A stretch of DNA of 18,070 nt from a virus (Duplodnaviria > Heunggongvirae > Uroviricota > Caudoviricetes): positions 1 through 18,070 of IMG/VR virus record IMGVR_UViG_2660238548_000002. One strand, 5' to 3'. Below are positions 1 to 16,361 of this stretch, one piece after another. The notes beneath the pieces were generated by a model. It saw only the letters and a list, made by a program, of their open reading frames with translations, was not told the origin of the DNA and ran no database searches. Both the position numbers and the translations under genes were made by a program. Position 1 is the stretch's first letter; every line of letters starts with the position of its first letter.

Positions 1-19
1 GCTGGGAAGGCTGGGTCAT
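1..19 (-). CDS. 5' fragment (MTQPSQ...) of the gene downstream of the adaptor, continuing beyond the window; a tail gene by position
   Basis: ATG at 19..17 on minus strand preceded by GGAGGG; lies 138 bp downstream of adaptor stop. Only 6 codons are in the window. Confidence 0.3.
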
Positions 20-127
20 ATCCCTCCGGCAGAAGCAGAAAAAGCTTATTATGCTTCCATCAGAAACGATGATCTGGCAGCCTGAGTTCACAGATAAAAC
101 ACTCTCCAGGAAAACCGGGGCGGTTCA
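1..127. repeat. Left copy of a ~127-bp inverted repeat; reverse complement matches 17944..18070 with about 8 mismatches
   Basis: Block-by-block comparison of revcomp(1..127) with 17944..18070. Contains an RBS and ATG for an outward-reading gene. Confidence 0.85.
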
Positions 128-157
128 CAAAGCTGGGCTGGATCCAACTGATAGCCA

Positions 158-763
158 TCAGGACAACCTCGCAATGGTAAACTCGTCAACCGGTGGCTGT
201 GGTTCCTGTGATTCATTCTGGCTATGCGAGCCAGCACTAAGAATCACGCGATTGTACATATTGAGGGCAAACGTACCGAGGTCTGCATTCCCAGTCAGCG
301 CCATGTTAATAGCTGCCGCAAGACGCCAGGCCAACGCCTCCATAAAAATGGCATCAAACATGTTCACATCTGAAACGCGAGATACATACTTGAGCCATGC
401 CTGCGGCTGGTCTGTGTAGATCAACTTTCCTGTTCCGTTGGTGTCTGCACCAACTTCGTACTGAACGCGCATTGCTGCTGTTGGATTGCGTACACCAGGA
501 AGCATAATTTCAGTAATGCGCAGACAATCGGACGGGTACTGGTACGCATATTCCCAGTCAGGCGGTGGATTGCTCGTATCTGCAAGCGCCACGCGTTTGG
601 TAGCAAAGTTCCAGTCAAAATCAGAAAGAACAGCATCACGGCAGGCCTCAAAGTGCAGCGAACATTCCCCCGCTTCCTTGCTGGCTTCCGTCAGGCTGTT
701 AATGCTGCGACTGTTGCCAATATTGGACAGCGCACGATTACAGATCTCTACTACAGAGGCCAT
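158..763 (-). CDS. Head-to-tail adaptor / gatekeeper protein, T7 gp11-like
   Basis: Listed ORF 158..766 starts at GTG; the ATG at 763 overlaps the upstream TGA (TGATG). N-terminal ALSNIG...INSL and DFDWNF motifs resemble recalled T7 gp11. Position is downstream of the capsid gene. Confidence 0.55.
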   Translation of the reverse strand: MASVVEICNRALSNIGNSRSINSLTEASKEAGECSLHFEACRDAVLSDFDWNFATKRVALADTSNPPPDWEYAYQYPSDCLRITEIMLPGVRNPTAAMRVQYEVGADTNGTGKLIYTDQPQAWLKYVSRVSDVNMFDAIFMEALAWRLAAAINMALTGNADLGTFALNMYNRVILSAGSHSQNESQEPQPPVDEFTIARLS

Positions 764-1086
764 CACTCACCTCCGTTACCGTACAGAGTTTCAGCCGCTG
801 ATTTTTCTACACCCCCGGAAACAGGAGCGATCGCCATATCAGTGATCTGCAGATCGGCGCTGCGATTAACACCATCGTCAGTTTCTCTGGCAGACAGGCC
901 TCGAATAACAGCCTTTGCAGTTATCATCACTTCCGTTCCGACGCCCTTAGGTTGCGCCTTCAGCTTATTCAATGTGTCGTTATTAAGAGTGATGCACAGC
1001 CCCCATGGGTATTCATCGCGAGTTCTGGTTTCTCCGCTCTCATCCTGGTAGCTGTCAGTGCCGGTTTTGAGGTTTACGAGTTCCAT
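763..1086 (-). CDS. Hypothetical small late protein (107 aa), possibly virion-associated
   Basis: ATG at 1086 with AGGAG 7 nt upstream. In the late operon between capsid and adaptor. Confidence 0.5.
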   Translation of the reverse strand: MELVNLKTGTDSYQDESGETRTRDEYPWGLCITLNNDTLNKLKAQPKGVGTEVMITAKAVIRGLSARETDDGVNRSADLQITDMAIAPVSGGVEKSAAETLYGNGGE

Positions 1087-1097
1087 ATACACTCCTG

Positions 1098-1119
1098 CAA
1101 TAAAGGGGCCGAAGCCCCT
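1098..1119 (-). terminator. Intrinsic terminator inside the late operon, downstream of the capsid-proximal genes
   Basis: On the minus strand: AGGGGC-TTCG-GCCCCT hairpin followed by TTTATTG, lying between the stop at 1137 and the next RBS. Confidence 0.55.
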
Positions 1120-1136
1120 TGTCTGATTCGCGAGGC

Positions 1137-1472
1137 TTACACGCCCAGTTCTTTACGCTTATCTGCGATCTTCTCGCGGAGCGTTTCAGCTTTGGCGTTA
1201 TGGTGTGGCTTCTCGTTAAAGAGCAATTCGTACTCTTCACGGAGCTTATCCAGTTCACCATCATCTGACACATCGTTGATGATTTTGGTGCTGGTTGCTG
1301 CCATTGACACCTTTCCTGCAACTTTTGCTTTTGCCTGTCTGGCTGCATCGTTAACAGGTTCCAGTGCGCTACCAGGCTCACCTTCGTATTCGATTTCTGC
1401 CCCCTCCGGCCACAGAGTGTTATGGATATGAGAGAGGCGCAGAACGCGGTATCTTGGTTTCTCACCTGACAT
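1137..1472 (-). CDS. Hypothetical late protein (111 aa), acidic with a coiled-coil C-terminus
   Basis: ATG at 1472 with AAGGTGA RBS; the listed ORF extends to a GTG at 1481 without an RBS. Confidence 0.5.
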   Translation of the reverse strand: MSGEKPRYRVLRLSHIHNTLWPEGAEIEYEGEPGSALEPVNDAARQAKAKVAGKVSMAATSTKIINDVSDDGELDKLREEYELLFNEKPHHNAKAETLREKIADKRKELGV

Positions 1473-1482
1473 CGATATCACC

Positions 1483-1920
1483 TTAACCAGTTACTTTTGA
1501 GCGGATCGGATACGGCGTATTGGCATCAACATCAAGACTGATACCAGCAGTGAATTCGCCAGCCGTTAGTGGGCCAGTTGCGACGGAGTAGTTAACACGC
1601 AGATATCGCTGAACACCGGCAGGCACCTTTGCAGAAACAACTCGTTTACCTGCTGTCAGGGCGGTCTTTGCCAGTGCGCCACTATCATAAATAGTGGTCC
1701 ATGAGCTGTTATTCTCACTCGTCTGCAACTGGATGTTTACAGTTGCATCACCGCTTGCCGCGGCGGCTGTGTTAACCAGCGCCCAAAACTCAAGCGGGTA
1801 ACCCACGCCGATATCACGACGTTTTCCGTCAATTGGACCGAGATCGATTACGTCAGTAGAAGCCGCGGTATTCGTAACCGCCTGAGCTTCGGAGAACATC
1901 AACAGTTTGTCGGTGATCAT
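1483..1920 (-). CDS. Putative capsid-associated structural protein (145 aa, beta-rich; decoration or cement candidate)
   Basis: ATG at 1920 with GGAG 8 nt upstream. Immediately downstream of the major capsid gene; T/S/A/V/G-rich composition. Confidence 0.4.
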   Translation of the reverse strand: MITDKLLMFSEAQAVTNTAASTDVIDLGPIDGKRRDIGVGYPLEFWALVNTAAAASGDATVNIQLQTSENNSSWTTIYDSGALAKTALTAGKRVVSAKVPAGVQRYLRVNYSVATGPLTAGEFTAGISLDVDANTPYPIRSKVTG

Positions 1921-1971
1921 CTTCTTTCTCCATTAGTGGGTCTGTTACGACCCACAGGTTAATAACAGGCG

Positions 1972-2964
1972 TTACACCACACGGGCTTCTGTTTCCAGAA
2001 GCGCATCAGTCTCACGGATTGGTACACCACGGAATGAAGTCCACCACTCGCCTTCTGTCTCTTTTACGCTGATCGCCAGAGATGTTTTCTCCAGAGATTG
2101 CAGATCAAGAGCCTGGCCTACAGTGCGGTTCATGTAGAACACCGGGCGGCCCATGCCACGGTTTGGAATGCGATGCAGTGCTTTAACCATCAACTTCGCA
2201 ATATTTGCTGCAGAGGAAGGTTCTGAAAGATTGCTGACATCGATGTTTGCAATGCGAACAACATAACGCCAGTCACGCAGAGCAAGCCCGTTGTCCCATT
2301 TGTAATGGGTACGGTAGCCTTCGTACTTGCCGCCATTCGCATCTTCCAGTGTCACCTGGCCTTTATCTTCCATCTGGATGCCAGCCTTCTGCCCTTTCGG
2401 GAAGATGCCATGCACGGTGTTTTCGCCCCACACCACTAACCAGATAGAGGTGTTATCTGTACCCGTGCCACCAGCATCAATGATGTTCTGAGCATTACCC
2501 GCAGACAGGCTGGAATAGCGGGAGGACAGTCCCATAAACTGCTGAGGGTTAACGCTGGAATCACCATAAAACAGCGTCTGCGCCATCTGCTGATTCATCG
2601 CTTCAATAAATGCGCGGTCTTCAGACAGGCGGAATTCGGCGGTATTGCCGTTCAGATCAGCCAGTGACTTATCGACTTCAGCATAGGTTTCCAGCATGCC
2701 AACGGAATCGGTTACCTGCACTGTGGTTGATTTGCTTGGCTGTACGCCATAGTTCAGCAAACGCCAGGTAGCTGAAGGTAAACCAGAACGAATGGTGGTT
2801 CGGTGTCCGGTAGGAAGGTTCCCTTCGACAAAAGGCATATCCTGAAGGATCGGGTTAGTTTGACCGAGAAGCTCGATAATCTTATCGACTTTCCCGTTTG
2901 GATCGACGCGCTTACCCCAGTCAGCCAGCGTTAGCGCAGTTAAGCCTTTAACAGCCATTGTCAT
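1972..2964 (-). CDS. Major capsid protein (about 330 aa)
   Basis: Follows the scaffold gene in portal-scaffold-capsid order; size typical of T7 gp10-type capsid proteins. The ATG at 2958 has better RBS spacing than the one at 2964. Confidence 0.7.
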   Translation of the reverse strand: MTMAVKGLTALTLADWGKRVDPNGKVDKIIELLGQTNPILQDMPFVEGNLPTGHRTTIRSGLPSATWRLLNYGVQPSKSTTVQVTDSVGMLETYAEVDKSLADLNGNTAEFRLSEDRAFIEAMNQQMAQTLFYGDSSVNPQQFMGLSSRYSSLSAGNAQNIIDAGGTGTDNTSIWLVVWGENTVHGIFPKGQKAGIQMEDKGQVTLEDANGGKYEGYRTHYKWDNGLALRDWRYVVRIANIDVSNLSEPSSAANIAKLMVKALHRIPNRGMGRPVFYMNRTVGQALDLQSLEKTSLAISVKETEGEWWTSFRGVPIRETDALLETEARVV

Positions 2965-2972
2965 TTCCTCTC

Positions 2973-3668
2973 TTATTTGCCATAGAGCACTTCGGCCGCA
3001 CTACGCTGGCCTTCATTACCACCGGTGACCATGCCATCTTCAGACATCGCCTTTCCGATTTTCACGAACGTCTTGACCAGATCAGGGTGATTACCCAGTC
3101 CGGTGGTGTTCAGATATTCTTTGAGCTCAGGTGTCCCGAACTGGTCAAGCGCACGCTGCGCGGCGCTAAGGTTAGAAATCAACTTGTCGCCACCGATTTC
3201 TTTGTCAGCTTTTACATCAGCAGCCCACTGCTCGGTTGTTTTCTGCCAGGCTTCTGCCTGGCGCTGCTGAACACCTGCCAGAATCTTCGGATAAGCATCA
3301 ACCAGCTTTTGCGCTTGCTCGTTGGTCAGGTTTAGTTCTCGCGCCACCGGCTCGAATTCCTTCAACGCTTCTGTATCCAGCTCTACGCCTTCGGCAGCCT
3401 GAAACTCGTACTTCTCAGGCGCACCCTCTGGTTTATCGCCGTCCTTTTTTTCATCCAGCTTATCGTTTTCAGGCTTTTTGTCAGCAGCAGGTTTATCGCC
3501 ATCAGCAACAGGTTGTGGCTTATCACCTTCCTGTTGTGATGGATCACCAACTGGAGCAGGGTTATCACCTGCAGGCGCTGACGGTTCTGACGCAGCCGGA
3601 GCTGCTCCACCATCGACTGGTTGCTCATTGCAAAGACGGCTATACAGCAAACGCTCAAATAAATTCAT
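2973..3668 (-). CDS. Scaffolding protein (acidic, Pro/Ala/Asp/Lys-rich N-terminus, helical C-terminus)
   Basis: Low-complexity acidic composition and position between portal and capsid. ATG at 3668 has AGGAG 5 nt upstream; the listed ORF starts at GTG 3674. Confidence 0.65.
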   Translation of the reverse strand: MNLFERLLYSRLCNEQPVDGGAAPAASEPSAPAGDNPAPVGDPSQQEGDKPQPVADGDKPAADKKPENDKLDEKKDGDKPEGAPEKYEFQAAEGVELDTEALKEFEPVARELNLTNEQAQKLVDAYPKILAGVQQRQAEAWQKTTEQWAADVKADKEIGGDKLISNLSAAQRALDQFGTPELKEYLNTTGLGNHPDLVKTFVKIGKAMSEDGMVTGGNEGQRSAAEVLYGK

Positions 3669-3670
3669 GA

Positions 3671-3967
3671 TCACTCCTGTTCACTGGCCTCTTTGGCCAT
3701 CTTCAAATACTGTTCAGGGCAATGCGCCATAACGCGCTGAAACAGTTCCAGCGCCAGATTGCGTTGCCCCTCATTAAATGCCATTGCCATAGCGTCCATC
3801 GGCGAGATAGCGGAAAACACACGGCCTTTCTCCAGTACCGACCAGACAACCCGACGCCCCTGTTCACAGCTCATGACAAAGCGAATGTCATCAATTTCAC
3901 GCTGTGCCATGTCACGTTGCTTACGGGCGTTTTCTTCTTTCAGTTGATCGTCTTCGTAATCTGTCAT
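3671..3967 (-). CDS. Hypothetical small head-module protein (98 aa)
   Basis: ATG at 3967 overlaps the portal stop (ATGA); its own stop lies 2 nt before the scaffold ATG. Tightly coupled within the operon. Confidence 0.55.
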   Translation of the reverse strand: MTDYEDDQLKEENARKQRDMAQREIDDIRFVMSCEQGRRVVWSVLEKGRVFSAISPMDAMAMAFNEGQRNLALELFQRVMAHCPEQYLKMAKEASEQE

Positions 3968-5643
3968 TGTGATTGCCCACCCTGACCACTAACTGCATTC
4001 GCCATAGCTGACAAAACACTCGGATCCGAAGTTTTAGCTTCGCTTAGCGTCTTGGCCCCCTGTGCCGCCGCCATCCCCATCGCCATCATTTGTTGCTGCT
4101 GTTGCTGCTGTGCCCGTTGCTGGCGAGCCTGCTCAACCTGTTCCTGCGGAACAATGACGGTTGGAGACACTCCGGACATATCAGCGAATGCATCGATCGC
4201 CTGATCAACGTTGAGTTTGTCGAGAGCTTCTGGTTTCGCTTGCGCAAGTTGACCAATGAAGTTAACCGTGGACGCCAGACTGGACAGGCCGATAGACTTC
4301 TGCGCCTGAGCCATGACGGAAATGTATTCGACCTTCAGGGGCATGCCTTCCATCGCGTCAGGCGGTGGCGGCAGCATGTTTTTACGCACCATCATCGAGA
4401 AAGCGCGGTCAATGAGAGGATTAAGACATTCGTCGTTCAGACGCTCCAGAACCGGCCCCAACATCAGAAGTTTTTCTTCTTTCATTTCGATCACCGCTTC
4501 AACAGGCATCGAGCGGGTATTGATGTTCTGCAACATCATGAACAGATCGACAAAGTAGGCGCTGTTAATGATTTGACGAGTGTCCTGAATGTCTGCCACC
4601 AAATCTGCTGTACTGGGGTTAACCAGATAAGCAGGCCTGAAGCCATCCTGACCAGTAATCTGATCGATATACGTGATGTCGCCAGGAAGAAGGGAGGCGC
4701 GCTGATTCTTGAGGGAAGTCGGAGCAACCATCGGCGGATTGGTGGCTTTATCAATCAACTGCGACTTGCGCTTCTGGAGAAGCTGCAATGCCTTAACAGG
4801 TCCAAGCGCCAGCATGCCCGGGCATGATGATCCATAAACATCTTCACCGTTAACTTCCCAGCGCGGAGCCATAATTGGAAACTCATCGAATCCGGACTCA
4901 CGCAACAACTTGTCGTTATCGCCACCAACCTCGTAATAAACCGATTTGAATGGCTTGTTCTTGCTATCCAGCTTCGATGTATCGCGGTCAATGTTCGGGT
5001 AAACCGAATGCATCACGTCAATCCACTTCTCGTAGGTGCCGCTTTCCCACATGCTTTTTACGGATTCGCTGACGTTATTTAGCCCGAACTCCTGAACAAG
5101 CTGACGAACAGTCATAGAGAACTTGCGAAAACAGGTGTCAACACTGCCACGAGGTGAGTTAGCCAGGTAGTAACTGCCTATCGGGAATGGCATTGTGCGA
5201 ATGATGTCCTCATCATCCTCCAGTACCGCCATTGCACCGGTGCTGTATGTGCCGAGGCTTCCGTATAACTGCGGCAGCGACTGATAGAGATTCGACTTAT
5301 TGAACATATCGTTCATGCGGTTCTGCACCGCCTCAAGCCACAACTTAACAGGGCCATAATCCATCATTTCAGGATCTGGCGTAGCCAGGCGAAACCACGG
5401 ACGCGCAGGGCTTGTGATGCCTGACATCATGCCGCTGGCGAGAGTGCGCGCCGCCATAGTCCCGGTCGAATCAATAATGCGTGTATTGCGCCGATCGTTA
5501 CGGTTGGCCTCAGAAGTCAGAAAGCGGGAACCACGCGGGTTGATGTAATCACTCAACTCGCGCCAGTGCGGCTCGAACGACTGACGCTCGCTTTCAAGTT
5601 GTGCGAACTGTTTGTTCAATCGCTCTTTAGTTGTTTCCGCCAT
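3964..5643 (-). CDS. Portal protein, T7 gp8-like head-to-tail connector
   Basis: 559 aa. N-terminal region and the Gln/Ala/Met-rich C-terminal tail resemble recalled T7 gp8. Sits upstream of scaffold and capsid. Confidence 0.75.
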   Translation of the reverse strand: MAETTKERLNKQFAQLESERQSFEPHWRELSDYINPRGSRFLTSEANRNDRRNTRIIDSTGTMAARTLASGMMSGITSPARPWFRLATPDPEMMDYGPVKLWLEAVQNRMNDMFNKSNLYQSLPQLYGSLGTYSTGAMAVLEDDEDIIRTMPFPIGSYYLANSPRGSVDTCFRKFSMTVRQLVQEFGLNNVSESVKSMWESGTYEKWIDVMHSVYPNIDRDTSKLDSKNKPFKSVYYEVGGDNDKLLRESGFDEFPIMAPRWEVNGEDVYGSSCPGMLALGPVKALQLLQKRKSQLIDKATNPPMVAPTSLKNQRASLLPGDITYIDQITGQDGFRPAYLVNPSTADLVADIQDTRQIINSAYFVDLFMMLQNINTRSMPVEAVIEMKEEKLLMLGPVLERLNDECLNPLIDRAFSMMVRKNMLPPPPDAMEGMPLKVEYISVMAQAQKSIGLSSLASTVNFIGQLAQAKPEALDKLNVDQAIDAFADMSGVSPTVIVPQEQVEQARQQRAQQQQQQQMMAMGMAAAQGAKTLSEAKTSDPSVLSAMANAVSGQGGQSQ

Positions 5644-5657
5644 TTCAATGACTCCGG

Positions 5658-5864
5658 TTACTGACCAAGCAGCGTTTTACCGCTGGTATTAGCGGTTGAT
5701 GTGTCGCCCTGAGAACCGGTAAGAAGCGTAGAACTACGACCAGCAGCAGCGCGACGGCGACGTGTTTCTTCGTCGCGGGCATCAACAACGGCGGCATCCT
5801 GCTCCTGTGGTGCTGCCTGAACTTCTGGTGTTGCAGGCACTGATGGTGAGCTACCCATGCACAT
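5658..5864 (-). CDS. Small Ala/Gln/Arg-rich low-complexity protein (68 aa), possibly an internal virion protein
   Basis: ATG at 5864 with GGAG RBS; stop 12 nt before the portal RBS. Resemblance to T7 gp7.3 is from memory and weak. Confidence 0.4.
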   Translation of the reverse strand: MCMGSSPSVPATPEVQAAPQEQDAAVVDARDEETRRRRAAAGRSSTLLTGSQGDTSTANTSGKTLLGQ

Positions 5865-5932
5865 ATCAATGACTCCGTACGCAATTAAATTATTACCAAT
5901 TTAACCACAAATGATTTACCTATCGTAGATAG

Positions 5933-5969
5933 TTGACATTTAACGCACGAATTATTACCTTTCAGGTAA
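5933..5969 (+). promoter_or_regulatory. Candidate promoter (TTGACA at 5933..5938) with a perfect TTACC-N5-GGTAA palindrome at 5955..5969
   Basis: Perfect -35 hexamer, AT-rich -10 region, and a palindrome identical in form to those at the cI/cro region. Points toward the noncoding region and tRNA. Confidence 0.4.
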
Positions 5970-6029
5970 GCAAAGAGTTCATTCCGGTTATTAACCTGAC
6001 TAGCTTGTCGTTAAATTGAACAGGTGGGG

Positions 6030-6290
6030 TGAGATTTTATTTTGAGCAGTACGGCGTATGGCACATGCGCCGATAGCGGTCTGGATACGTTTAAGGGGCA
6101 CTCTCCCTTGCTCTGGCAAACGAACCAGGTAGCCGGGATGTGCAAGTCGAGCGGTTTTATTCCGCGCACGGGGATTCACCATCCCGGCGATTCGGTGTGA
6201 CACCTCGGAAGAGACGAGGGTACAACGATGAGAGCATTTATGGAACCGCGACAAAGTGTGGCGCCTTAACAGGCTAAGTGCTCTCAGCGT
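6030..6290 (+). ncRNA. Candidate structured noncoding RNA upstream of the tRNA (class unknown)
   Basis: No + strand ORF of 60 aa or more across 5885..6753. Contains a perfect 9-bp stem (GCCGGGATG 6131..6139 / CATCCCGGC 6180..6188) and several further hairpins. Confidence 0.25.
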
Positions 6291-6291
6291 T

Positions 6292-6368
6292 GTGGCATTA
6301 GCTCAGTTGGACAGAGCAACCGCCTTCTAAGCGGCTGGTCGCAGGTTCGAATCCTGCATGCCACGCCA
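6292..6368 (+). tRNA. tRNA-Arg (anticodon UCU), 77 nt with encoded CCA
   Basis: Manual fold: 7-bp acceptor stem GTGGCAT/ATGCCAC, D-arm GCTC...GAGC, anticodon loop CTTCTAA, T-arm GCAGG-TTCGAAT-CCTGC, discriminator G then CCA. Pair 27-43 is an A-C mismatch. Confidence 0.9.
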
Positions 6369-6411
6369 GAATCACGCCTAAGGACCGTGATGCCAGAAGT
6401 TCCAGGTGCTT

Positions 6412-6454
6412 GGCGGTGATGGTTTCCATTGAAGGACTATCACCGCCCTTTTTA
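6412..6454 (+). terminator. Intrinsic terminator downstream of the tRNA
   Basis: GGCGGTGAT ... ATCACCGCC stem followed by CTTTTTA. Confidence 0.5.
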
Positions 6455-6531
6455 CAGCAGGACGCCATTGCGATGACTTCATGCTGTAAACCCGTACAGC
6501 CACGGAAGGCATAACTCATTGCTTACAGTTC

Positions 6532-6555
6532 GCCCGGTTCACCGGGCATTTTTTT
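6532..6555 (+). terminator. Intrinsic terminator
   Basis: GCCCGG-TTCA-CCGGGC hairpin followed by ATTTTTTT. Confidence 0.7.
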
Positions 6556-6614
6556 AAGGTGTGAATCATGAAATACGAATTCGATGGATTTTAATGTCGT
6601 GACACGTCACAAAC

Positions 6615-6642
6615 AGCCAGCCGATAAGCTGGCTTTGTTTTA
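6615..6642 (+). terminator. Intrinsic terminator-like hairpin
   Basis: AGCCAGC-CGATAA-GCTGGCT followed by TTGTTTTA. Confidence 0.45.
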
Positions 6643-6697
6643 TCCTCATCAGAGGATATCAACGACATTATCCCCTCATAGGGATACGTTTTTCATA

Positions 6698-6726
6698 ATG
6701 ACCGAAGATTACCTTAAAGGTAGAAT
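6698..6726 (+). promoter_or_regulatory. Candidate promoter of the 246-aa gene (-10 TAGAAT at 6721..6726) overlapped by an operator-like palindrome TTACC-N5-GGTAG at 6709..6723
   Basis: -10 hexamer about 28 nt upstream of the ATG; a weak -35 (ATGACC) at 17-bp spacing; palindrome lies between them. Confidence 0.4.
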
Positions 6727-6753
6727 CAGAAAAAAACCTAAAAGGGCCTGGAC

Positions 6754-7494
6754 ATGCTTGAATCACTTAAAGAATACCTATCTTCAACCGTTAATACCGC
6801 TTCGCAAAGGGTCAGAAATCCAGTGTTTGGAGCGTTCGCACTGTCATGGTGCGCCTTTAACTGGAAGTCGATTTTATACTTACTCCTCAGCGACTCCAGC
6901 ATCATCGACAAGATCACCTACATTTCCAGCAATAGCAGTTGGAAAACGGTATTAGCATTCCCATGTGTTTCAGCAATAATCCTGTGCGGCGGCATGCCCT
7001 GGATCAACAACGTGATTTCAAAGTGGCAAGCCAAACCTCTTGATAATTACGATTCGATAGAGAACCACCGGAAGGCCAAGCGCATTCATCGCGCCACACG
7101 CCTGCAGCGCCTGAAGGCAAAGCACGATGTGACATACGACAAAGTTAAGACTGGCGCCGAAAAAGACATACAGGCTATGAAGGAAAGAATTACGGAGTCA
7201 CAGGCCAGGATGGGTGAGCTAACGTCGGAAAGAGATAGGCTCTCCGATAAGGTTTTGGAATTGAATAAGAAGCTGGAAAACATGCAATCAGTGGCTGCAG
7301 CGTTAAAGATTGAGGCAGAAAAGTCCGCCAGAATGCTTGAAGATAGGGAGGCCAAAATAAATAATCTCATACAAGAATTAAAGGAAAAAGAAAAGGAAAG
7401 TATCGTATTGCATATGGGCCATGAACCCTTGCGAAAAACATATACATCACAGGCTGAGAGAATGATTGCTGAAGCCGTGAAAAATAAGCAATAA
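6754..7494 (+). CDS. Orphan accessory protein: two predicted TM helices at the N-terminus, a basic linker and a long coiled-coil C-terminus (246 aa); function unknown
   Basis: Opposite strand to the late operon, visibly AT-rich, with many AGA/AGG Arg and ATA Ile codons. Its stop (7492..7494) lies 1 nt from the terL stop (7496..7498). Confidence 0.7.
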   Translation: MLESLKEYLSSTVNTASQRVRNPVFGAFALSWCAFNWKSILYLLLSDSSIIDKITYISSNSSWKTVLAFPCVSAIILCGGMPWINNVISKWQAKPLDNYDSIENHRKAKRIHRATRLQRLKAKHDVTYDKVKTGAEKDIQAMKERITESQARMGELTSERDRLSDKVLELNKKLENMQSVAAALKIEAEKSARMLEDREAKINNLIQELKEKEKESIVLHMGHEPLRKTYTSQAERMIAEAVKNKQ

Positions 7495-7495
7495 A

Positions 7496-8971
7496 TCACG
7501 CAAACGGGTCGTAATCTGTGATGGCCTTGCCTTGCTGGTTCTGCTGACCGGGAATTCGCAGGCGCTTCGACACAGGGAAAGCAAACGTCAGCAATAGCGC
7601 ATCGCCTTTCCCCGGCGAACGCCCAAGTCGTTCTTTGATATCTTCCTTCGGTTCGATAACGATTTTACCGTCCACGCGAACTTTGTACTCTGCCGTCGAC
7701 AGGTCGTCCGCTGTTTCCTGGTCATCCAGCATACCGCCCAGCCTCAGCCATGTCTTACATGAGTTGAACATCTCCCCACGCTTGTTGAGCATCTGCGGGT
7801 CAGTAGACGCGCCACCGAACGGAACAAGTTGCCATGTACGTCCCCAGCCATCACCGATTGACTTCAAACCGGTTCCGTAACCGAAGTCGATGAATACCGC
7901 GTCAGCCTGATACTTGTCTTCAAAGTCAGCGATGCGCTTCGCCATAATCAGATCGTCAGTGGTCTTGTTGCCAGTCCACAGCACCTTACTGTGCAGCCCC
8001 TGCCGCAGGTATATCACAGCGTCATCAACGCCGGAGTATGCCGGGTCAACGCCGATTATCACCGGAGCATGTGCCACCTGCGCAGCAGTTACCACCCGTT
8101 TCATTGCCTCGTCAGTAAGGCCGGTAGGGATAAACTGCAATTCAGATGCATCAGGGAATATGCCGCGCACACGGATTTTAACGAAGTCGCTGTCTTCCCC
8201 GTAGTCATCAACCCATTTCTGCAACTGCTGTTTGTTAGTGCCTTCCACCGTCCGGCTGTCAATCTGCGCAGTTTTCCAGCGGTGTTTATATTTGCGGAAA
8301 CATTCGCGGAAACGTCCGGTATTACGCGTCGGGTTTCCGAACGCCACCCAGATAATCTCAGTGTCTTCGTCCGTAAGCGCCCCCTCGGCAACTTCCCACA
8401 CCAGATCCGCAATGTTCGACGCTTCATCAAACACCACGATGATGCGTTTGCGCTCGTTGTGTAGTCCGGCGAATGCCTCGGTGTTGTGCTCAGACCAGGG
8501 GATTGCGTCAGCTCGCCACCGCTTGTCGTGCCCAGGATCATTGCTGTACATCGCGGTAGCGGTACAGGTAAACCAGTCTTTCGTGATAGCAAGGTTCGAC
8601 CACTTGATAATTTCCGGCCAGGTCTTCGTTCGTAGCTGGTTGTCGGTGTTGGCGGTCACCACGACCTTACAATCCTCGCAAGTGGACATGCCCCAGTTGA
8701 TCAGCATTGAGATGAATGCGGATTTACCAATACCGTGACCAGAAGCGCGTGCCAGCATAAGCGGCTGATAGCGCGTCTCTGGATTCTGCAGGTGATCACG
8801 TATCTCTCGGAACGCATCAGCCTGCCACTGACGTGGGCCGGTAGCATGTGCCAGTTCAGTCCCCTCTTCCCCCCAAGGGAACGCATAGAGGGCATAGCCA
8901 AGCGGATCGTGAGTGAACCCTGCAATATCCTCGATTAACTGCTCTTCAGGAGATAACGCTGTATCTGTCAC
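7496..8971 (-). CDS. Terminase large subunit
   Basis: 491 aa with Walker A-like SGHGIGKS near the N-terminus and a C-terminal nuclease-like region. GTG start overlaps the terS stop (GTGA); immediately downstream of terS. Confidence 0.85.
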   Translation of the reverse strand: MTDTALSPEEQLIEDIAGFTHDPLGYALYAFPWGEEGTELAHATGPRQWQADAFREIRDHLQNPETRYQPLMLARASGHGIGKSAFISMLINWGMSTCEDCKVVVTANTDNQLRTKTWPEIIKWSNLAITKDWFTCTATAMYSNDPGHDKRWRADAIPWSEHNTEAFAGLHNERKRIIVVFDEASNIADLVWEVAEGALTDEDTEIIWVAFGNPTRNTGRFRECFRKYKHRWKTAQIDSRTVEGTNKQQLQKWVDDYGEDSDFVKIRVRGIFPDASELQFIPTGLTDEAMKRVVTAAQVAHAPVIIGVDPAYSGVDDAVIYLRQGLHSKVLWTGNKTTDDLIMAKRIADFEDKYQADAVFIDFGYGTGLKSIGDGWGRTWQLVPFGGASTDPQMLNKRGEMFNSCKTWLRLGGMLDDQETADDLSTAEYKVRVDGKIVIEPKEDIKERLGRSPGKGDALLLTFAFPVSKRLRIPGQQNQQGKAITDYDPFA

Positions 8972-9564
8972 TGATTGCCATCCTGACGTTCTTTGAGTCG
9001 CTTCCTGGCTGCTGCTATGCGATCAGCAATTGTCACATTCACATTAACATCCAAGCGTTCTTTGAATGCGTTGACGTCGACGTGCTTACCAATCAGTTCG
9101 AGGTTCTTCACCTTGTCAGGCCATTTAATTTTTTTGAGGATTGTCTCTATCGAATCCTCGTTCATGTTCATGATGGTCGATGACAGATCAAAGCCGCTAA
9201 GCGTAGTGCGCCAGATTTTCGGCCACTCACGGATTGGTTTAAGGCTCCCATCGTCGTTGAGGATGTCGATCACGTCCATCTGGTCGATCTCCACTAGGCG
9301 CATGAGAACGTAATCAGCACTGACGCGCATTCGTTTGTTGCGCTCCTCCATCAACTCGGCAATCCGTTTTTGAATGCGTTCATCGCGCATCATGACACTG
9401 GCTTTAACTGCCGCTGTATTTGGGGAGAATCCTGCGTTAATCGCTGCCTGAGTCTGGTTTTCAGGCGTTTTGATGTATGACTGGCAATAAGCCTCCTGCA
9501 TTGCTGTGAGCGGCTTAAATTGCGTTGATTTGCGTTTATAGGTTTTAGGTTCAGCAGGCATCAT
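8968..9564 (-). CDS. Terminase small subunit
   Basis: Family-typical N-terminal LTAMQEAYCQSY...NAGFSPNTAAVKAS. Start placed at ATG 9564 (GGTGG upstream); the listed ORF's further extension (TITTTVTITT) runs through a terminator and repeats. Confidence 0.75.
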   Translation of the reverse strand: MMPAEPKTYKRKSTQFKPLTAMQEAYCQSYIKTPENQTQAAINAGFSPNTAAVKASVMMRDERIQKRIAELMEERNKRMRVSADYVLMRLVEIDQMDVIDILNDDGSLKPIREWPKIWRTTLSGFDLSSTIMNMNEDSIETILKKIKWPDKVKNLELIGKHVDVNAFKERLDVNVNVTIADRIAAARKRLKERQDGNQ

Positions 9565-9571
9565 AACCACC

Positions 9572-9602
9572 GTGGTAATAGTTACCGTTGTGGTAATAGT
9601 AA
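9572..9602. repeat. Two 13-bp direct repeats GTGGTAATAGT(T/A)A 18 bp apart, just upstream of the terS start
   Basis: Read directly from the sequence; the first copy forms the palindrome GGTAATAGTTACC. Candidate packaging or regulatory site. Confidence 0.5.
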
Positions 9603-9606
9603 CATG

Positions 9607-9633
9607 CAAAATAAAGCCGCCATAGTTGGCGGC
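9607..9633 (-). terminator. Intrinsic terminator immediately upstream of terS
   Basis: On the minus strand: GCCGCCA-ACTA-TGGCGGC followed by TTTATTTTG, in the 75-bp gap between the 70-aa gene and terS. Confidence 0.65.
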
Positions 9634-9638
9634 AGTAT

Positions 9639-9851
9639 TCAAAGTCCATCAAATTCATCGTAAAAACTCTCGTCAAGATACCCTTCCCATTTACCGCGAA
9701 TGAAAATTACATCCTCGCCGCAAGGGTGCTGACTGTCGATAACTATATCCCTCCTGGCGCAACCATACTTATGCATGAGAAATTTAACCTCTTTCGGAAA
9801 ATTTGCTGAGTTATCTCTCATATCTTCAAGGTCGTAGCGTATTTTTGGCAT
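9639..9851 (-). CDS. Hypothetical small protein (70 aa)
   Basis: ATG at 9851 with GAGGTG RBS directly upstream; the listed ORF extends to 9866. Confidence 0.5.
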   Translation of the reverse strand: MPKIRYDLEDMRDNSANFPKEVKFLMHKYGCARRDIVIDSQHPCGEDVIFIRGKWEGYLDESFYDEFDGL

Positions 9852-9867
9852 AACACCTCGTGACATG

Positions 9868-10206
9868 TCACACTATTAATTTCGTTTCATGCCAGCCTTT
9901 GGTCACCCAGCATTGCGAGTCACCATTACACGGGCATGAATTCACAGGAACTCTCTCGCCGCACTTACCGCAACGTTTTCTGCTGATCGATTTTATACGC
10001 CCGCGCACGCGTGCATCATCCTGGCGGATCAGTAACGCTATATACTCACCAAATTCGTAAGGCGCACGCCCGGGGCGACGTGTGGCACAGTTACGCTCCA
10101 GCATTTCAATTTCCTGAGCATCAAGCACAATCTCCAGCTTACGTACACCGGATTCAGCTTGTCTGGCTCTCTGAGCGGCTTTGCGCTCTGCTGCTGATTT
10201 AGCCAT
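9868..10206 (-). CDS. Hypothetical protein (112 aa) with a basic N-terminus and a C-terminal Cys4 zinc-ribbon (CGKCG...CPC)
   Basis: ATG at 10206, 2 nt after the upstream stop. Function unknown; a regulatory role is only a guess from position. Confidence 0.5.
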   Translation of the reverse strand: MAKSAAERKAAQRARQAESGVRKLEIVLDAQEIEMLERNCATRRPGRAPYEFGEYIALLIRQDDARVRGRIKSISRKRCGKCGERVPVNSCPCNGDSQCWVTKGWHETKLIV

Positions 10207-10480
10207 CAATATTCACCTTTATCGCGAACACCTTTACCGGTTTATCGCCGAAGTGGGGATGTGTGATTGTCTTGATTTCATATCCGTCATACGGAATATC
10301 AATTCTGCGGCTGGAATCGTCGCGCTTCGGATATCCCTTTGTGATAATCAGGCGGTCATACTCCCGGAACATAATTCGCTTATTCCAATAGTCATTACAC
10401 AGGCGATACTCCTCGGTTTTCTCGCCACGAATCATGGCATCGAAGTATTCACCTTTTACGGCAAGTTGCAGGTTAGCCAC
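10199..10480 (-). CDS. ASCH/DUF3850-like small protein (93 aa)
   Basis: GTG start with AGGAGG 7 nt upstream. N-terminal LQLAVKGEYFDAMIRGEKTEEYR resembles the recalled DUF3850/ASCH pattern. Confidence 0.45.
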   Translation of the reverse strand: MANLQLAVKGEYFDAMIRGEKTEEYRLCNDYWNKRIMFREYDRLIITKGYPKRDDSSRRIDIPYDGYEIKTITHPHFGDKPVKVFAIKVNIDG

Positions 10481-10757
10481 GACCTTCCTCCTTTGGCTTG
10501 TGAATTTGTATCGTCATGCCGCTTTGAGTGGTGACTACAATGACAGAACCAGGCTGAAGGCTGTTAAGATTGAATGCTTCGTAAAACGAATCCAATGCCA
10601 GTGCTTTTTTATTCTTTCGGTTCCACCAACGCCATCCCTTGCTACAGGCTACACTGACAATCCACTGCCCACTCCTGTAAGCCATATAAAACCAGATGAG
10701 CAAAACCTGAAGGAAGGCCATCCAGTCAATAATCGTATATTTCGCGAAGGAGTCCAT
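10473..10757 (-). CDS. Small membrane protein (94 aa) with one hydrophobic helix
   Basis: ATG at 10757 overlaps the upstream TGA (TGATG) and has a strong AGGAGGT RBS. Hydrophobic segment YTIIDWMAFLQVLLIWFYMAY. Confidence 0.55.
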   Translation of the reverse strand: MDSFAKYTIIDWMAFLQVLLIWFYMAYRSGQWIVSVACSKGWRWWNRKNKKALALDSFYEAFNLNSLQPGSVIVVTTQSGMTIQIHKPKEEGRG

Positions 10758-11329
10758 CAATTCACCTCCTGCGGCGGTTCTGGTAGCGGCATCCAGAACA
10801 AGACGTTCCCTAACCACGATAAAGTGCCGTCGCTCAACTCCACGTATTCCCCTTGTACCTGTCCTGCCATATACTCGCCGTGCTTTGAATAAATTAAAAT
10901 CCAATCATCTTGAGCGGGCATTCGCTCACTACAGCTTATCCAACCATCCGGAGTTACCGGAGAGTTGCCCGATAGCTCGTTCAACTTGTAAGTCTGGCTT
11001 ACAAGTTCGGCTTCCAATTCTGCTATGCGCTTCTCTGATGCTTCCAGCTCAACACGCAGCTTCCCTACCGTTAGCGCAATATCCTCGTTCTCCTGGTCGC
11101 GGCGTTTGATGTATTGCTGGTTTCTTTCCCGTTCATCCAGTAGTGCCAGCACGGTTTCTGGTCCGGCCAGAAGTTTGAAGGCGTTGAGCGCATCAATATC
11201 CACACCGTAATCTTTAAGTTCCTGTTCACTTAACAAATCATCATCAACTGGCAACATTAACAGGCGTTCCATTGCCGGAATTGCACGTTCTGCCGCCATT
11301 CGCAGTGCCTGATAGTCAATCTTGCTCAC
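10757..11329 (-). CDS. Ea22/Ead-like protein with a C-terminal DUF551-type domain (190 aa)
   Basis: GTG start with AAAGGAGG RBS. C-terminal W...FWMPLPEPP resembles the DUF551 signature common in lambdoid early regions. Confidence 0.5.
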   Translation of the reverse strand: MSKIDYQALRMAAERAIPAMERLLMLPVDDDLLSEQELKDYGVDIDALNAFKLLAGPETVLALLDERERNQQYIKRRDQENEDIALTVGKLRVELEASEKRIAELEAELVSQTYKLNELSGNSPVTPDGWISCSERMPAQDDWILIYSKHGEYMAGQVQGEYVELSDGTLSWLGNVLFWMPLPEPPQEVN

Positions 11330-11982
11330 TGGTTGCCTCCTTTTCGAAGCTCTGCGGCAAAGTCAGTGGCATGTTCACCGAGTAGTTTCCAGTTATCGCG
11401 TATATCAGATGCAAATGACTGTTCGGATTTTGAGTTACATTTCTGTGCAAACATCTCCAATCCCTGCGCCCGCACTTCAGCCAGGCATTTGCGAAACTCG
11501 GAAACGTACTGTTCGACGCTCATTCCCCAGCTAAGTGGACATTCATTGAATGTTTCGCCTTCGTGCTCTTCATCAGGTAGCTCTTTGGTAAAGAACTCAC
11601 GCTCAATGGCGTGGAGTGTGTCAGCAAAACGACGTAAGTTACTCAAACCTACCGTAATGGAGAATTCAGGAGCATCACATCCGACGCCCATCTGCTGATA
11701 AACGGCGGTTTTGAAGGCCTTCAGCGCCGCATTCTCCGCTGCCAGCTCCGAAAACTTCTCGTGTGCCAACTTAACAGCTGCATCAGCCTGCTTAATTGAC
11801 TCAATCGCTTTCTGCTGGTCTTCGGCCAGCGCATTAGCACGCACCAGTTGCACTTCCAGTTGCGTTGCCAAATCGCTGATCAGCTTTGCCACGCTGCGCA
11901 TATCAACGGCACCACATTCTGCTTTCAGTTCCGAAGCCATCTCATGCCCGGCGGTAACTAACCCTTTGATATTACAGTCCAT
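11326..11982 (-). CDS. Hypothetical coiled-coil protein (218 aa)
   Basis: ATG at 11982 with GAGGG RBS. No recognisable domain. Confidence 0.5.
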   Translation of the reverse strand: MDCNIKGLVTAGHEMASELKAECGAVDMRSVAKLISDLATQLEVQLVRANALAEDQQKAIESIKQADAAVKLAHEKFSELAAENAALKAFKTAVYQQMGVGCDAPEFSITVGLSNLRRFADTLHAIEREFFTKELPDEEHEGETFNECPLSWGMSVEQYVSEFRKCLAEVRAQGLEMFAQKCNSKSEQSFASDIRDNWKLLGEHATDFAAELRKGGNQ

Positions 11983-12027
11983 CTTTACCCTCGCTTATCC
12001 ACATAACTTATTGATTACATTGATAAC

Positions 12028-12055
12028 TAAAAAGATCGTCGATTCATGCCGATCT
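12028..12055 (-). terminator. Possible intrinsic terminator overlapping the HNH gene stop
   Basis: AGATCG ... CGATCT stem flanked by an A-tract and a T-tract; the 11-nt loop makes it weak. Confidence 0.3.
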
Positions 12056-12652
12056 ATTTTTCATCAGTGATTCATAAAACTTTTGCCACTTATGCCGACC
12101 GAAATTAGCCTTCGAGTTACAGCTCGAACAAAGGCAAATAAGGTTCTCCTGACGACAGTCTTGCTTGTCGTAATTGATGTGATGAGTTGTTAGCCTTTTG
12201 TCTGTTCCATCACAACCTGGGTTCTGACAAGTAAAACCATCTCGCTCAATAACCCTCTTGCTCGTTTCTCGGAAATCCCACGGATACGGCAATCTCGATA
12301 ATCCACCAGACCAGTTTGGATTTCCTTCCCCCTTCATCAGAGAAGAACGCATTATGTTGGAACACTGTTTCGAGCAGCATTTATGACGCTTCTCATGACT
12401 CAAGAAAACGGAGAACGAAGATCCGCATACGCAGCATATTTTTAATACTCGCTTTAGTTCCCGATTTACCGTCTTGCCTCGCTGTGAAATTCCTACACAC
12501 TGAAGTGAGCAGAACCTTGAAGATGAGTTGGCTCGCTTAACCTGATATTGCCTGCCACATACGGGGCAAACCTTTTCGATTTTCCCACCCTTCCAATTCG
12601 GGTTTTTATCACCGGATACAATCAATCCCGCAGCATTGGGCTTCTCGCTCAT
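12044..12652 (-). CDS. HNH homing-type endonuclease with duplicated NPNW(K/S)GG modules (202 aa)
   Basis: C-terminal HHINYDK...ENLICLCSSCN is an HNH motif; two NPNWxGG repeats. AT-rich. ATG at 12652 overlaps the upstream stop (ATGA). Confidence 0.8.
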   Translation of the reverse strand: MSEKPNAAGLIVSGDKNPNWKGGKIEKVCPVCGRQYQVKRANSSSRFCSLQCVGISQRGKTVNRELKRVLKICCVCGSSFSVFLSHEKRHKCCSKQCSNIMRSSLMKGEGNPNWSGGLSRLPYPWDFRETSKRVIERDGFTCQNPGCDGTDKRLTTHHINYDKQDCRQENLICLCSSCNSKANFGRHKWQKFYESLMKNRSA

Positions 12653-13002
12653 AGTTCCTCAACCTCCCATCCACCACCGAGCTTTTTAGGTTTTGGATAA
12701 GCAACCTGAAAGACAAACGGATAGCTGTCTGCCGCAACCTTCATCTTGACTCTCGCATCGTCAGTAAAGACTGACTTACTTCCCTTAACGTCCACCATCA
12801 CCAACTGCCCGTCAGCCAACATCACGGCAAAATCTACAGTCAGGAAGCAGTTGTCAGCCAGCCGCAGCTTGATACCCTCGAACCGATACCAGGCGACTTC
12901 CCCTGCACGTTTACGCTGCTCAAGGTGCTGGCAATACGCAGATTCTGTTTTGTTCATCTGGCCTGTTTTGAGTCGACCAAGAGCCTGTATCTGTTTTCTC
13001 AT
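12649..13002 (-). CDS. DUF1064-like phage protein (117 aa)
   Basis: Pattern ...YRFEGIKLRLADNCFLTVDFAVM...VDVKG resembles recalled DUF1064. Translationally coupled to the HNH gene. Confidence 0.45.
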   Translation of the reverse strand: MRKQIQALGRLKTGQMNKTESAYCQHLEQRKRAGEVAWYRFEGIKLRLADNCFLTVDFAVMLADGQLVMVDVKGSKSVFTDDARVKMKVAADSYPFVFQVAYPKPKKLGGGWEVEEL

Positions 13003-13005
13003 GAT

Positions 13006-13082
13006 TTACCTCTAAGGTAATTAAAAACCACATAAGGCACAAAATCAATAGATCTAAGAATATTTTGTTACCCATTGGGTAA
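13006..13082. promoter_or_regulatory. Two perfect TTACC-N5-GGTAA palindromes (13006..13020 and 13068..13082) upstream of the DUF1064 gene
   Basis: The first palindrome starts 4 nt upstream of the ATG and contains the RBS; the second lies about 60 bp further upstream. Confidence 0.5.
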
Positions 13083-13119
13083 TTATTGAGGCGTAAAAAA
13101 ATGCGCTATCGCGCTGGTA

Positions 13120-13920
13120 TTACTTGATAAATCCTGCTGCCTTTCCTCGCCTGTATTCCTCCATCAGCCACTGCGCCGGTGTTATTCCCCCCAGGGTGGC
13201 GGCGTTAGGCATGCACCCGAAACTTCGCCCTGGTGGATGGTAAACGTCTCTCCCTGTGTCCGGAGGTGTACTCATGGGTTCTGGCTTTGCCTGTATGCTG
13301 ATCACCGGATCGGGTATCTGCTGTCCGGAAGCCACCTTTTTCGCCCAATCATCGAGCAACCTGCGCGCGTGTTTCTCAACCTCAATCTCGCTAAGCTGGC
13401 GCTGATACATTGCACGGCGGGTATCACATACGACCCAGTACATAACCGGATGTCGCCACGGGAATCTTTCGGGACCACCAGGATATAAACTTTTTTCCTT
13501 GCTGTACCGGTGAAACTCCGCCATCACATCGTCAATGGTGACGCCAAGAACCATCTTGCTGTCTTTACACCACTTGATGAATTGCCCTGGCGACGGCCAG
13601 AACGGAGATTCACTGGCGCGGGCGTGGCGCATACCAGCAGAAACCTGTTCACGGGTTCGGATCCCCCCTTCGGCAAACGCAGCAATCCACTGCTGTTTTG
13701 CAGCAACTTCCTGCTCTGGCGTCTTCAGGTTGGTTACCACTGCCGCCGGAAACAGTTGTTTCAGCTGTTTGAAAAGGGCATCAACAAGCCTCTCTGCTGA
13801 CATGTTCACCACGTTGTCATTGTTGGTGTACTGATGCTCATAACCTGACATGCGAGAAAGGGCTTCTCCGTCACGGTTTTGTATCGCGGTAAAAACGTTG
13901 TTCACAAGAAATCCTCCCAT
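13120..13920 (-). CDS. Lambda P-like replication protein (helicase loader)
   Basis: Central QWIAAFAEGGIRTREQVSAGMRHAR...PFWPSPGQFIKWC aligns with the recalled lambda P region RRQWVLAFRENGITTMEQVNAGMRVAR...PFLPSPGQFVAWC. Strong GGAGGA RBS. Confidence 0.8.
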   Translation of the reverse strand: MGGFLVNNVFTAIQNRDGEALSRMSGYEHQYTNNDNVVNMSAERLVDALFKQLKQLFPAAVVTNLKTPEQEVAAKQQWIAAFAEGGIRTREQVSAGMRHARASESPFWPSPGQFIKWCKDSKMVLGVTIDDVMAEFHRYSKEKSLYPGGPERFPWRHPVMYWVVCDTRRAMYQRQLSEIEVEKHARRLLDDWAKKVASGQQIPDPVISIQAKPEPMSTPPDTGRDVYHPPGRSFGCMPNAATLGGITPAQWLMEEYRRGKAAGFIK

Positions 13921-14717: not shown

Positions 14718-14732
14718 GATTAATCTCCGCTA

Positions 14733-14933
14733 TCAGCTTGAATGTTGTGGGGAGGAATTAATCATGATCTGCTTAATCTCTGCCCTGATGCGACGGTTTG
14801 ATTCCATGGTGCACTCAACACAGTGTCCGTTGTAAACCCAGCGTTCACTGTCATGTCCGTGCTTACATGATTTTCCGGTGTAGTAGCGTTTAAGTCCGCG
14901 CTTTGCGGCATCAATACGTGTAATGATTTCCAT
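14733..14933 (-). CDS. Small Cys/His-rich zinc-finger protein (66 aa) in the cII position
   Basis: ATG at 14933; motif CKHGHD...HCVEC. Sits between the cro-like gene and the O-like gene; function unknown. Confidence 0.4.
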   Translation of the reverse strand: MEIITRIDAAKRGLKRYYTGKSCKHGHDSERWVYNGHCVECTMESNRRIRAEIKQIMINSSPQHSS

Positions 14934-16359: not shown

Positions 16360-16361
16360 TA

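Follow-up and report, generated by a model that had tools for sequence, protein, structure and literature searches.

A phiV10-type Uetakevirus prophage piece with a standard head module and two insertion sequences, most likely defective

The phages phiV10, epsilon15, Tyrion and SPN1S belong to the genus Uetakevirus according to their records, and ZX5 and PAS61 have been assigned to the same genus in the papers that describe them (PMC9782041, PMC11522302). The members of this group are temperate phages with short tails. Their integration site is the 3' end of guaA, and they possess a single tRNA as well as a repressor/antirepressor switch (PMC9782041, PMC11522302). The stretch of DNA analysed here, called the window in the following, comprises 18,070 nucleotides of a tailed virus (positions 1 to 18,070 of IMG/VR record IMGVR_UViG_2660238548_000002). 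An earlier note, made from the letters alone, had read it as a mosaic in which a T7-like head module stands behind a lambdoid-style terminase pair in a temperate backbone. We are instead highly confident that the window is best explained as a 17.8-kb piece of a phiV10-type prophage (Uetakevirus, in the epsilon15 group of enterobacterial temperate podoviruses) with a standard head module and two insertion sequences (IS), and that this copy is most likely defective.

Relatives and gene order of the window

In megablast searches of phage records, the Escherichia phage phiV10 (NC_007804; Uetakevirus phiV10) matches positions 128-9659 at 98% nucleotide identity. The phages vB_EcoP_PAS61, phiv142-3 and TL-2011b match at 97-98% across 128-16664, and together with ZX5 and the O157 typing phages 9 and 10 they cover most of that interval at the same identity. 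Tyrion is 83% identical at the nucleotide level to the structural module of the window, and epsilon15 is 74-81% identical outside a capsid cassette that is treated below. Prophages beside guaA in complete Escherichia coli genomes carry the same block at 98% identity, and in 49 of these genomes 80% or more of the window is covered. The extent matched by the Uetakevirus phages and the guaA-side prophages is 128-17946, and all matches start at 128 and end at 17946. From epsilon15 gp1 (terS) to gp12 (nozzle) the gene order is collinear with that of the window, including a gene on the opposite strand after terL. The tyrosine integrase, the guaA site and the tailspike lie outside the IS-bounded window; they are carried by the 98%-identical relatives and have been described for ZX5 and PAS61 (PMC9782041, PMC11522302). 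The likeness to temperate podoviruses that had been noticed from the layout is thus borne out by the phiV10/epsilon15 group, with phiV10 itself at 98%. This is the usual architecture of a genus that has a name and is already known, and not a newly formed mosaic.

Almost all long open reading frames (ORFs) in 158-15314 lie on the minus strand. In the order of transcription the late block consists of terS, terL, a gap of 1.6 kb, a gene of 68 amino acids, the portal gene, a gene of 98 amino acids, a gene for a scaffold-like protein, the capsid gene, three small genes and the adaptor gene. The part of this block that had been recognised before (TerS, TerL, portal, scaffold, capsid, three small genes and adaptor) is present and its coordinates are good; the cargo gene, the tRNA-Arg, the genes at 5658-5864 and 3671-3967 and the IS ends at 1-127 and 17944-18070 had been passed over. 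On the minus strand, terS (8968-9564) encodes a PF03592 protein (Pfam E=1e-29) and terL (7496-8971) matches phrog_2 (E=1e-52), its product sharing 94% identity with epsilon15 gp2 and 53% with the terminase of Carin-1; in an alignment, four Uetakevirus TerL proteins are 79-94% identical to each other. Two features lie on the plus strand in the gap that separates terL from the portal gene, a cargo gene for a protein of 246 amino acids (6754-7494; phrog_4780, function unassigned) and a tRNA-Arg with anticodon UCU (6292-6368), which is also present in the relatives (PMC9782041) and was the only match of an Rfam scan of the whole window.

The head operon follows on the minus strand. Its first gene is a homologue of epsilon15 gp3 with 68 amino acids (5658-5864; phrog_831; 88% identity to epsilon15 gp3), upstream of which lies an operator-like palindrome (TTACC-N5-GGTAA, 5955-5969). 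Next come the portal gene of the T7 gp8 superfamily (3964-5643; PF12236), a small Bbp19-like protein of 98 amino acids homologous to epsilon15 gp5 (3671-3967; PF25181, E=2e-16), the scaffold-like protein of 233 amino acids homologous to epsilon15 gp6 (2973-3674; phrog_458), and the major capsid gene of the epsilon15 gp7/BPP-1 Bbp17 family (1972-2964; PF20911, NF045672). The three small genes are a Bbp16-family capsid cement gene (1483-1920; PF21190), a homologue of epsilon15 gp9 with unassigned function (1137-1481; phrog_590, E=4e-61; 40% identity to epsilon15 gp9) and a capsid staple or decoration gene of the epsilon15 gp10 type (763-1086; PF21628). The head-to-tail adaptor gene (158-766), homologous to epsilon15 gp11, matches phrog_394, 'tail protein' (E=8e-87), and its stop codon overlaps the ATG of the nozzle gene (TGATG). 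By homology to the relatives, the first 10 codons of this nozzle gene (128-158; epsilon15 gp12 homologue) are present before it is cut by an IS.

The end coordinate 9564 of the previously described region fits the probable start of terS. An ATG at this position gives a protein of about 198 amino acids, and we consider it probably the true start because the Tyrion and epsilon15 TerS homologues have 197-198 amino acids. The RefSeq-style call of a TerS of 224 amino acids in relatives starts from a TTG at 9642, and its reading frame crosses both a hairpin with its T-run and an operator-like palindrome.

Insertion-sequence ends and the state of this copy

Positions 1-127 (plus strand) are the 3' end of an IS3-family element, as seen from the translation and from genome matches. 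They encode the C-terminus of OrfB, which ends in IPPAEAEKAYYASIRNDDLAA before the stop codon, and the inverted repeat ends at 127 (...CGGTTCA). In a set of 5426 complete E. coli genomes, to which the counts of junctions, cargo genes and IS refer, this stretch is 98.5-100% identical to loci named 'IS3 family transposase' in 4084. At the other end, recT (17567-18070, plus strand; identified by homology) is truncated near codon 126, where a further IS3-family end, inverted relative to the first, occupies 17944-18070. With the nozzle gene broken after codon 10 and recT near codon 126, both by IS3-family elements, this copy is probably defective, and we infer that it would be unable to make infectious particles.

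The two insertions look independent of each other, with the one in the nozzle gene the more private, because of what other assemblies hold. The recT::IS junction stands at the end of a 29-kb contig that, judged by its length, would run about 11 kb past the left end of the window, and other contigs with the same cargo gene have an intact nozzle gene of 823 amino acids. De Bruijn assemblers run with k=127 typically leave an overlap of 127 nt at contig ends. Because both IS stretches are exactly 127 nt long, the window suggests a whole short-read contig that was broken at repeats.

This length could also be taken to mean that the prophage is intact and inducible and that the IS ends are breaks or mis-joins of the assembly at repeats, and it agrees with such an explanation that neither of the two IS-phage junctions was found in any of the 5426 complete genomes. 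However, the phage sequence stops exactly at the terminal inverted repeat of the IS (TGAACCG...) on both sides, as it would in true insertions, an identical recT::IS fusion ORF is found in other, independent assemblies, and even a break induced by a repeat requires reads that join the phage to the IS end. We therefore hold an intact prophage to be improbable. That the two IS3-family copies instead form a composite transposon, which moves 17.8 kb of phage head and replication genes as cargo, is very improbable: the IS ends on the two sides of the segment are indeed inverted and turn the same end inward, but they differ at 8 of 127 positions, neither target duplications nor a second copy of the unit were seen, and the 29-kb recT::IS contig, with its presumed 11 kb leftward without an IS break, would imply independent insertions.

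Some points weigh against a defective phiV10-type prophage as the explanation of the window. Integrase, tail and lysis genes are absent from it, and the labels 'prophage' and 'podovirus' depend on the 98%-identical relatives. The roles given to TerL and to the scaffold-like protein depend on PHROG matches, synteny and close homologues, as neither protein has a Pfam, NCBIfam or PDB sequence match. The far side of each IS lies outside the window, so that a resumption of the nozzle gene there would not be visible. A phiV10-type prophage with IS in its nozzle gene and recT is nevertheless the explanation in which we place high confidence, and such insertions mark a decaying prophage, which is of relevance when inducible phages are predicted from draft assemblies.

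The head module and its likeness to T7

The portal protein matches PF12236 (E=1e-187) and the Carin-1 portal (PDB 8ck0_A, E=6e-179); that entries 8CK0, 8CJZ and 8CK1 are from Carin-1 was taken from the Foldseek entry descriptions. The capsid protein belongs to PF20911 (E=2e-149, 497 bits against a cut-off of 27) and to the NCBIfam equivalog NF045672, 'MCP_gp7_epsi_15' (E=9e-124, 412.9 bits against a cut-off of 75), and it matches PDB entries 3j4u_A from BPP-1 (1e-128), 8cjz_Y from Carin-1 (1e-87) and 3j40_A from epsilon15 (2e-85). It is 62% identical to BPP-1 Bbp17, 62% to BcepC6B gp08, 47% to the Carin-1 protein and 43% to epsilon15 gp7. The three small genes after the capsid gene had been regarded as interposed, but they are conserved members of the module, corresponding to epsilon15 gp8, gp9 and gp10, and no insertions. 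Judged by their families, two of them are capsid accessory genes (cement and staple), and the third is without assigned function. The cement protein (1483-1920) matches PF21190 (E=5e-47), the BPP-1 cementing protein 3j4u_H (E=1.5e-25) and the Carin-1 decoration protein 8cjz_B (E=1.6e-22), and the staple protein (763-1086) matches PF21628 (E=6e-51) and gp10 in PDB 3j40_N (E=9.5e-21), its RefSeq name in the relatives being 'capsid staple protein'. The scaffold-like protein is 46-48% identical to BPP-1 Bbp18 and Carin-1 gp44, and its position and its acidic, proline-rich N-terminus point to a scaffolding role. The label 'protease' or 'peptidase' that databases attach to 2973-3674 is backed by no domain match here, and it seems to go back to an old remark on similarity in the record of epsilon15.

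If the gene products act as their solved homologues do, TerS and TerL would package the DNA into a procapsid, which would be built on the portal of the T7 gp8 superfamily with the aid of the scaffold-like protein. The shell would be made of the HK97-fold capsid protein of the epsilon15 gp7/BPP-1 Bbp17 type and be reinforced by the Bbp16-type cement and the gp10-type staple, and the adaptor, with its T7 gp11 fold, would close the portal and dock the nozzle.

The likely start of the adaptor is the ATG at 763, giving 201 amino acids (the ORF 158-766 has 202). A sequence search found the Carin-1 connector, PDB 8ck1_E, at E=3e-26. An alignment of 26 sequences was used for an AlphaFold2 model (pLDDT 85), and a Foldseek search of the PDB with this model gave the Carin-1 connector as the top match (8ck1_E, E=3e-17, TM 0.86), followed by many podovirus adaptors, among them T7 gp11 (7box_M, E=9e-7, TM 0.60), 6r21 and 7ey7. 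The adaptor does not match PF17212, the family of T7 gp11, and BLASTP gives E=25, so the match is one of the predicted fold only; the model thus suggests homology at the level of the fold and no membership in the sequence family. For the portal, T7 gp8 and the protein of the window both match PF12236, with a pairwise BLASTP of E=0.053. The T7 proteins gp9, gp10A, gp11, gp18 and gp19 fall in PF05396, PF21703, PF17212, PF11123 and PF22530, and a Pfam search with the proteins of the window matched none of these five families.

The T7 motifs that had been noted earlier are not reflected in alignments: BLASTP of the portal, scaffold, capsid, adaptor and TerL proteins against T7 gp8, gp9, gp10A, gp11 and gp19 gave nothing significant, with E values of 1.2 or higher for capsid and scaffold against gp10A and gp9, and of 0.52 for TerL against gp19. 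A tblastn search with the capsid protein found 106 phage records, and no T7-group phage was present among 40 sampled down the full ranking or in the organism breakdown. The gene order is nevertheless collinear with T7 genes 8-12, and with the downstream genes of the relatives from 8 to about 16. Beyond the end of the window the relatives have a nozzle of 823 amino acids, a small protein, a core protein of the T7_gp14 family (PF24072) and three large proteins. In the relative L001 the nozzle homologue has 823 amino acids and shares 44.6% identity, along its entire length, with gp36 of Carin-1, a tail nozzle validated by structure. Genes for a tail tube, a sheath or a tape measure just outside the window had been named as what would speak against a podovirus; the 98%-identical relatives, which go on with the nozzle and T7-gp14-family genes, have none. 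The term T7-like holds only remotely, for the gene order, the portal family PF12236 and the modelled fold of the adaptor, and not for the capsid, the scaffold and both terminase subunits, which are in other families. Portal, adaptor and gp14 are remote homologues of the T7 proteins.

The terminase pair is not lambdoid either. TerS is a PF03592 protein, and BLASTP of TerL and TerS against lambda A and Nu1 gave nothing significant (E=1.5 for A and E=11 for Nu1). Hints about its class, headful or cos, are found in the records only, where a note for epsilon15 mentions an HHpred match to Sf6 gp2 and a note for phiV10 mentions P1 PacB.

A recent and novel mosaic, with a T7-like head grafted behind a lambdoid terminase in a lambdoid temperate backbone, would account for the collinearity with T7 genes 8-12, for the PF12236 portal and the gp11 fold of the adaptor, and for the presence of a homologue of lambda P and of iterons in the early region. 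But phiV10, which was sequenced about two decades ago, has all of this architecture at 98% identity, and so does the genus throughout in its layout; capsid, scaffold, TerS and TerL are in other Pfam families than those of T7, and no structural or terminase protein has a significant BLASTP match in T7 or lambda. We find such a graft hardly credible. The resemblance to T7 is rather an ancient trait of order and fold, common to the lineage of epsilon15, BPP-1 and Carin-1.

There is a real mosaic joint in the window, and it lies within the head module. The nucleotide match to epsilon15 ends at 774 and restarts at 3009, with no match in 775-3008. On the flanks the amino-acid identity to epsilon15 is 94% for TerL, 80% for the portal, 75% for the scaffold and 85% for the adaptor, and inside it is 43% for the capsid, about 35-36% for the cement, 40% for gp9 and 42% for the staple. 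The window's capsid is also nearer to BPP-1 Bbp17 and BcepC6B gp08 (62%) than to epsilon15 gp7 (43%). Because the match stops and resumes in this way and the identity drops in between, the capsid gene, the three accessory genes and the last 12 or so codons of the scaffold gene have been swapped together, as a single cassette. Modular exchange of this kind is ordinary in a genus, and here the genes for the capsid and its three accessory proteins move within the genus as an exchangeable unit.

Other variable spots are the cargo slot (6565-7499), two parts of the nin-like region in comparison with L001 (9660-9847 and 10963-11824) and, in comparison with phiV10, the whole early region. The cargo gene (44.5% GC) stands where phiV10, L001 and most relatives have a Gp49-family gene, and its product of 246 amino acids has a hydrophobic segment near the N-terminus, while the C-terminal half is charged and coiled-coil-like. 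The gene was found in only 5 of the 5426 complete genomes but in 172 blocks of an assembly collection, and in all seven of the contigs listed it occupies the same slot. Cargo genes are interchangeable at this place between terL and the tRNA. In PADLOC the cargo protein had only weak coiled-coil matches, to LmuB, JetC and PbeC (E=5e-4 to 6e-3), which were judged to be composition noise and no sign of a role in defence.

Early region, control of the late genes and comparison with known phages

The early genes had been described as a lambda-like cI/cro/O/P region, and the divergent layout, the P protein and the iterons agree with this, but the counterparts of O and cI do not. The repressor gene (15469-16053, plus strand) is of the SPC32H type (PDB 5d50, E=4e-42). 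In Pfam its product has helix-turn-helix domains only, and the identity of 5d50 as SPC32H comes from a note in the epsilon15 record. The repressor of lambda, of the cI type, has a C-terminal self-cleavage domain. A cro-like gene (15084-15314, minus strand) is divergent from the repressor gene. The replication module (13120-14717, minus strand) consists of an initiator with HTH_36 and DnaT domains (13902-14717, minus strand; Pfam) and a helicase loader of the lambda-P family (13120-13920, minus strand; PF06992, E=1.5e-56). Six iterons of 18-24 nt (ATCCCGTTTTTGGG...) lie at 14314-14466 inside the initiator gene, and this is likely the replication origin, as predicted from the repeats; the iterons also encode a repeated PKNGMLND peptide motif. 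In the ORFs scanned between P and terS no antiterminator-type family was found; an ORF of 143 amino acids at 10473-10904 was outside the scan. The nin-like region also holds an ORF of 202 amino acids (12044-12652) for a cysteine-rich protein resembling HNH endonucleases (phrog_1271, E=2e-23; weak PADLOC matches to ZorE-type HNH proteins). Its DNA is present in L001, where the equivalent (about 23718-24326) is without an annotated gene. It is only by its layout that the early region can be called lambdoid.

The palindrome TTACC-N5-GGTAA (15 bp) occurs in 7 copies in the window, where 0.04 would be expected. One copy lies in the gap between repressor and cro genes (15399), two lie between the repressor gene and the leftward operon on either side of a near-consensus promoter (16111 and 16173), and two follow P (13006 and 13068). 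In the late region one copy lies just upstream of terS (9582-9596, minus strand), behind a hairpin with a T-run (9616-9633), and the other is the one at 5955 mentioned above, so that palindromes precede every transcription unit, including terS and gp3/portal. These two late copies are kept in phiV10, Tyrion, SPN1S and epsilon15. In the epsilon15 record the same palindrome is labelled as repressor sites, and a terminator and a repressor site stand at the places equivalent to 9582-9633; to our knowledge, these repressor-site labels are predictions only. It is possible, though we would rather doubt it than assert it, that the late morphogenetic genes are gated directly by the prophage repressor and not by a lambda-style antitermination cascade; if true, this would at best confirm the prediction already present in the epsilon15 record. 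The late genes had been thought to be driven from the immunity region. With a hairpin and operator-like palindromes of its own upstream of terS and gp3, the late module appears to have gated entry points of its own and not simply to be driven from there.

A terminator had been placed at 1098-1119, interposed between capsid and adaptor. A GC-rich hairpin is indeed present on the minus strand, at 1103-1120 (AAGGGGC-UUCG-GCCCCUU), with a stem of 7 bp, a UUCG loop and -12.7 kcal/mol, but as a canonical terminator it is not confirmed. Its tail is UAUUGCAG, with no proper T-tract immediately 3' of the stem, a terminator scan that requires at least 5 T in 8 did not report it, and the z-score of the local fold, -1.45, is not unusual. 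It sits between the second and the third small gene (the gp9 and gp10 homologues), directly before the gp10 ribosome-binding site, and the position is conserved in 6 Uetakeviruses, including Tyrion, 65FD, a Klebsiella prophage-derived phage, SPN1S and epsilon15. The stem sequence differs in epsilon15 and SPN1S. The epsilon15 equivalent (7664-7686), whose T-tail is better (CUUUUCUAU), bears the label of a rho-independent terminator in the record. The hairpin would be a conserved structural RNA element, which may be at most a leaky terminator or an element of RNA stability.

T7 is a virulent phage with its own RNA polymerase, and the annotation of the complete epsilon15 record has no such gene. 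The T7 order of portal, scaffold, capsid, terminator, adaptor, nozzle and internal core proteins is that of the window and its relatives, and like the hairpin of the window, which comes between the capsid and adaptor genes, the T-phi terminator of T7 lies between genes 10 and 11. The terminase genes of T7 (PF11123 and PF22530) are at the far right end of the genome, whereas those of the window precede the portal gene. Lambda and the lambdoid phages share with the window the divergent repressor and cro genes, the iterons in the initiator gene, a P-family loader and nin-like small genes before the late genes; the Nu1/A terminase, the O initiator and the cI-type repressor of lambda are not matched by their counterparts here.

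The Bordetella phage BPP-1 (3J4U) and the Cobetia phage Carin-1 (8CJZ, 8CK0 and 8CK1), which have other hosts and belong to other genera, have the same families of head, adaptor and nozzle proteins as the window, and the structural roles were assigned from them. Their identities to the proteins of the window are 43-46% for the cement, 44-51% for the portal, 33% for the adaptor and 45% for the nozzle (Carin-1). In BPP-1 the gp10-type gene, Bbp20 (8752-9081; 49% identity over 81 amino acids), adjoins the portal gene and does not follow the capsid gene. Cement-type and staple-type genes are both present in BPP-1, and only the cement protein is in the solved capsid entry. In Carin-1 no gp10-type gene was found by BLASTP in the compared head-to-nozzle region of 12 kb.

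The Salmonella phage epsilon15, the type of the group, whose capsid is PDB 3J40, has like the window the hairpin between gp9 and gp10 and the palindrome upstream of terS and gp3. It differs in its replication genes, and no gene of the lambda-P type is annotated in it (NC_004775). L001 differs in the nin-like region, in about 9660-9847 and 10963-11824. The early region of phiV10 does not match the window beyond 9659, whereas those of PAS61, phiv142-3 and TL-2011b match at 97-98%. The correct annotation of the window is a Uetakevirus (phiV10-type) prophage fragment and not a hybrid of T7 and lambda, and its significance beyond that is small. Its late module has the gene order of phiV10, including the tRNA-Arg and the cargo slot, and it is set apart from the phiV10 group by a cargo protein of 246 amino acids in place of the Gp49-family gene and by two IS insertions.

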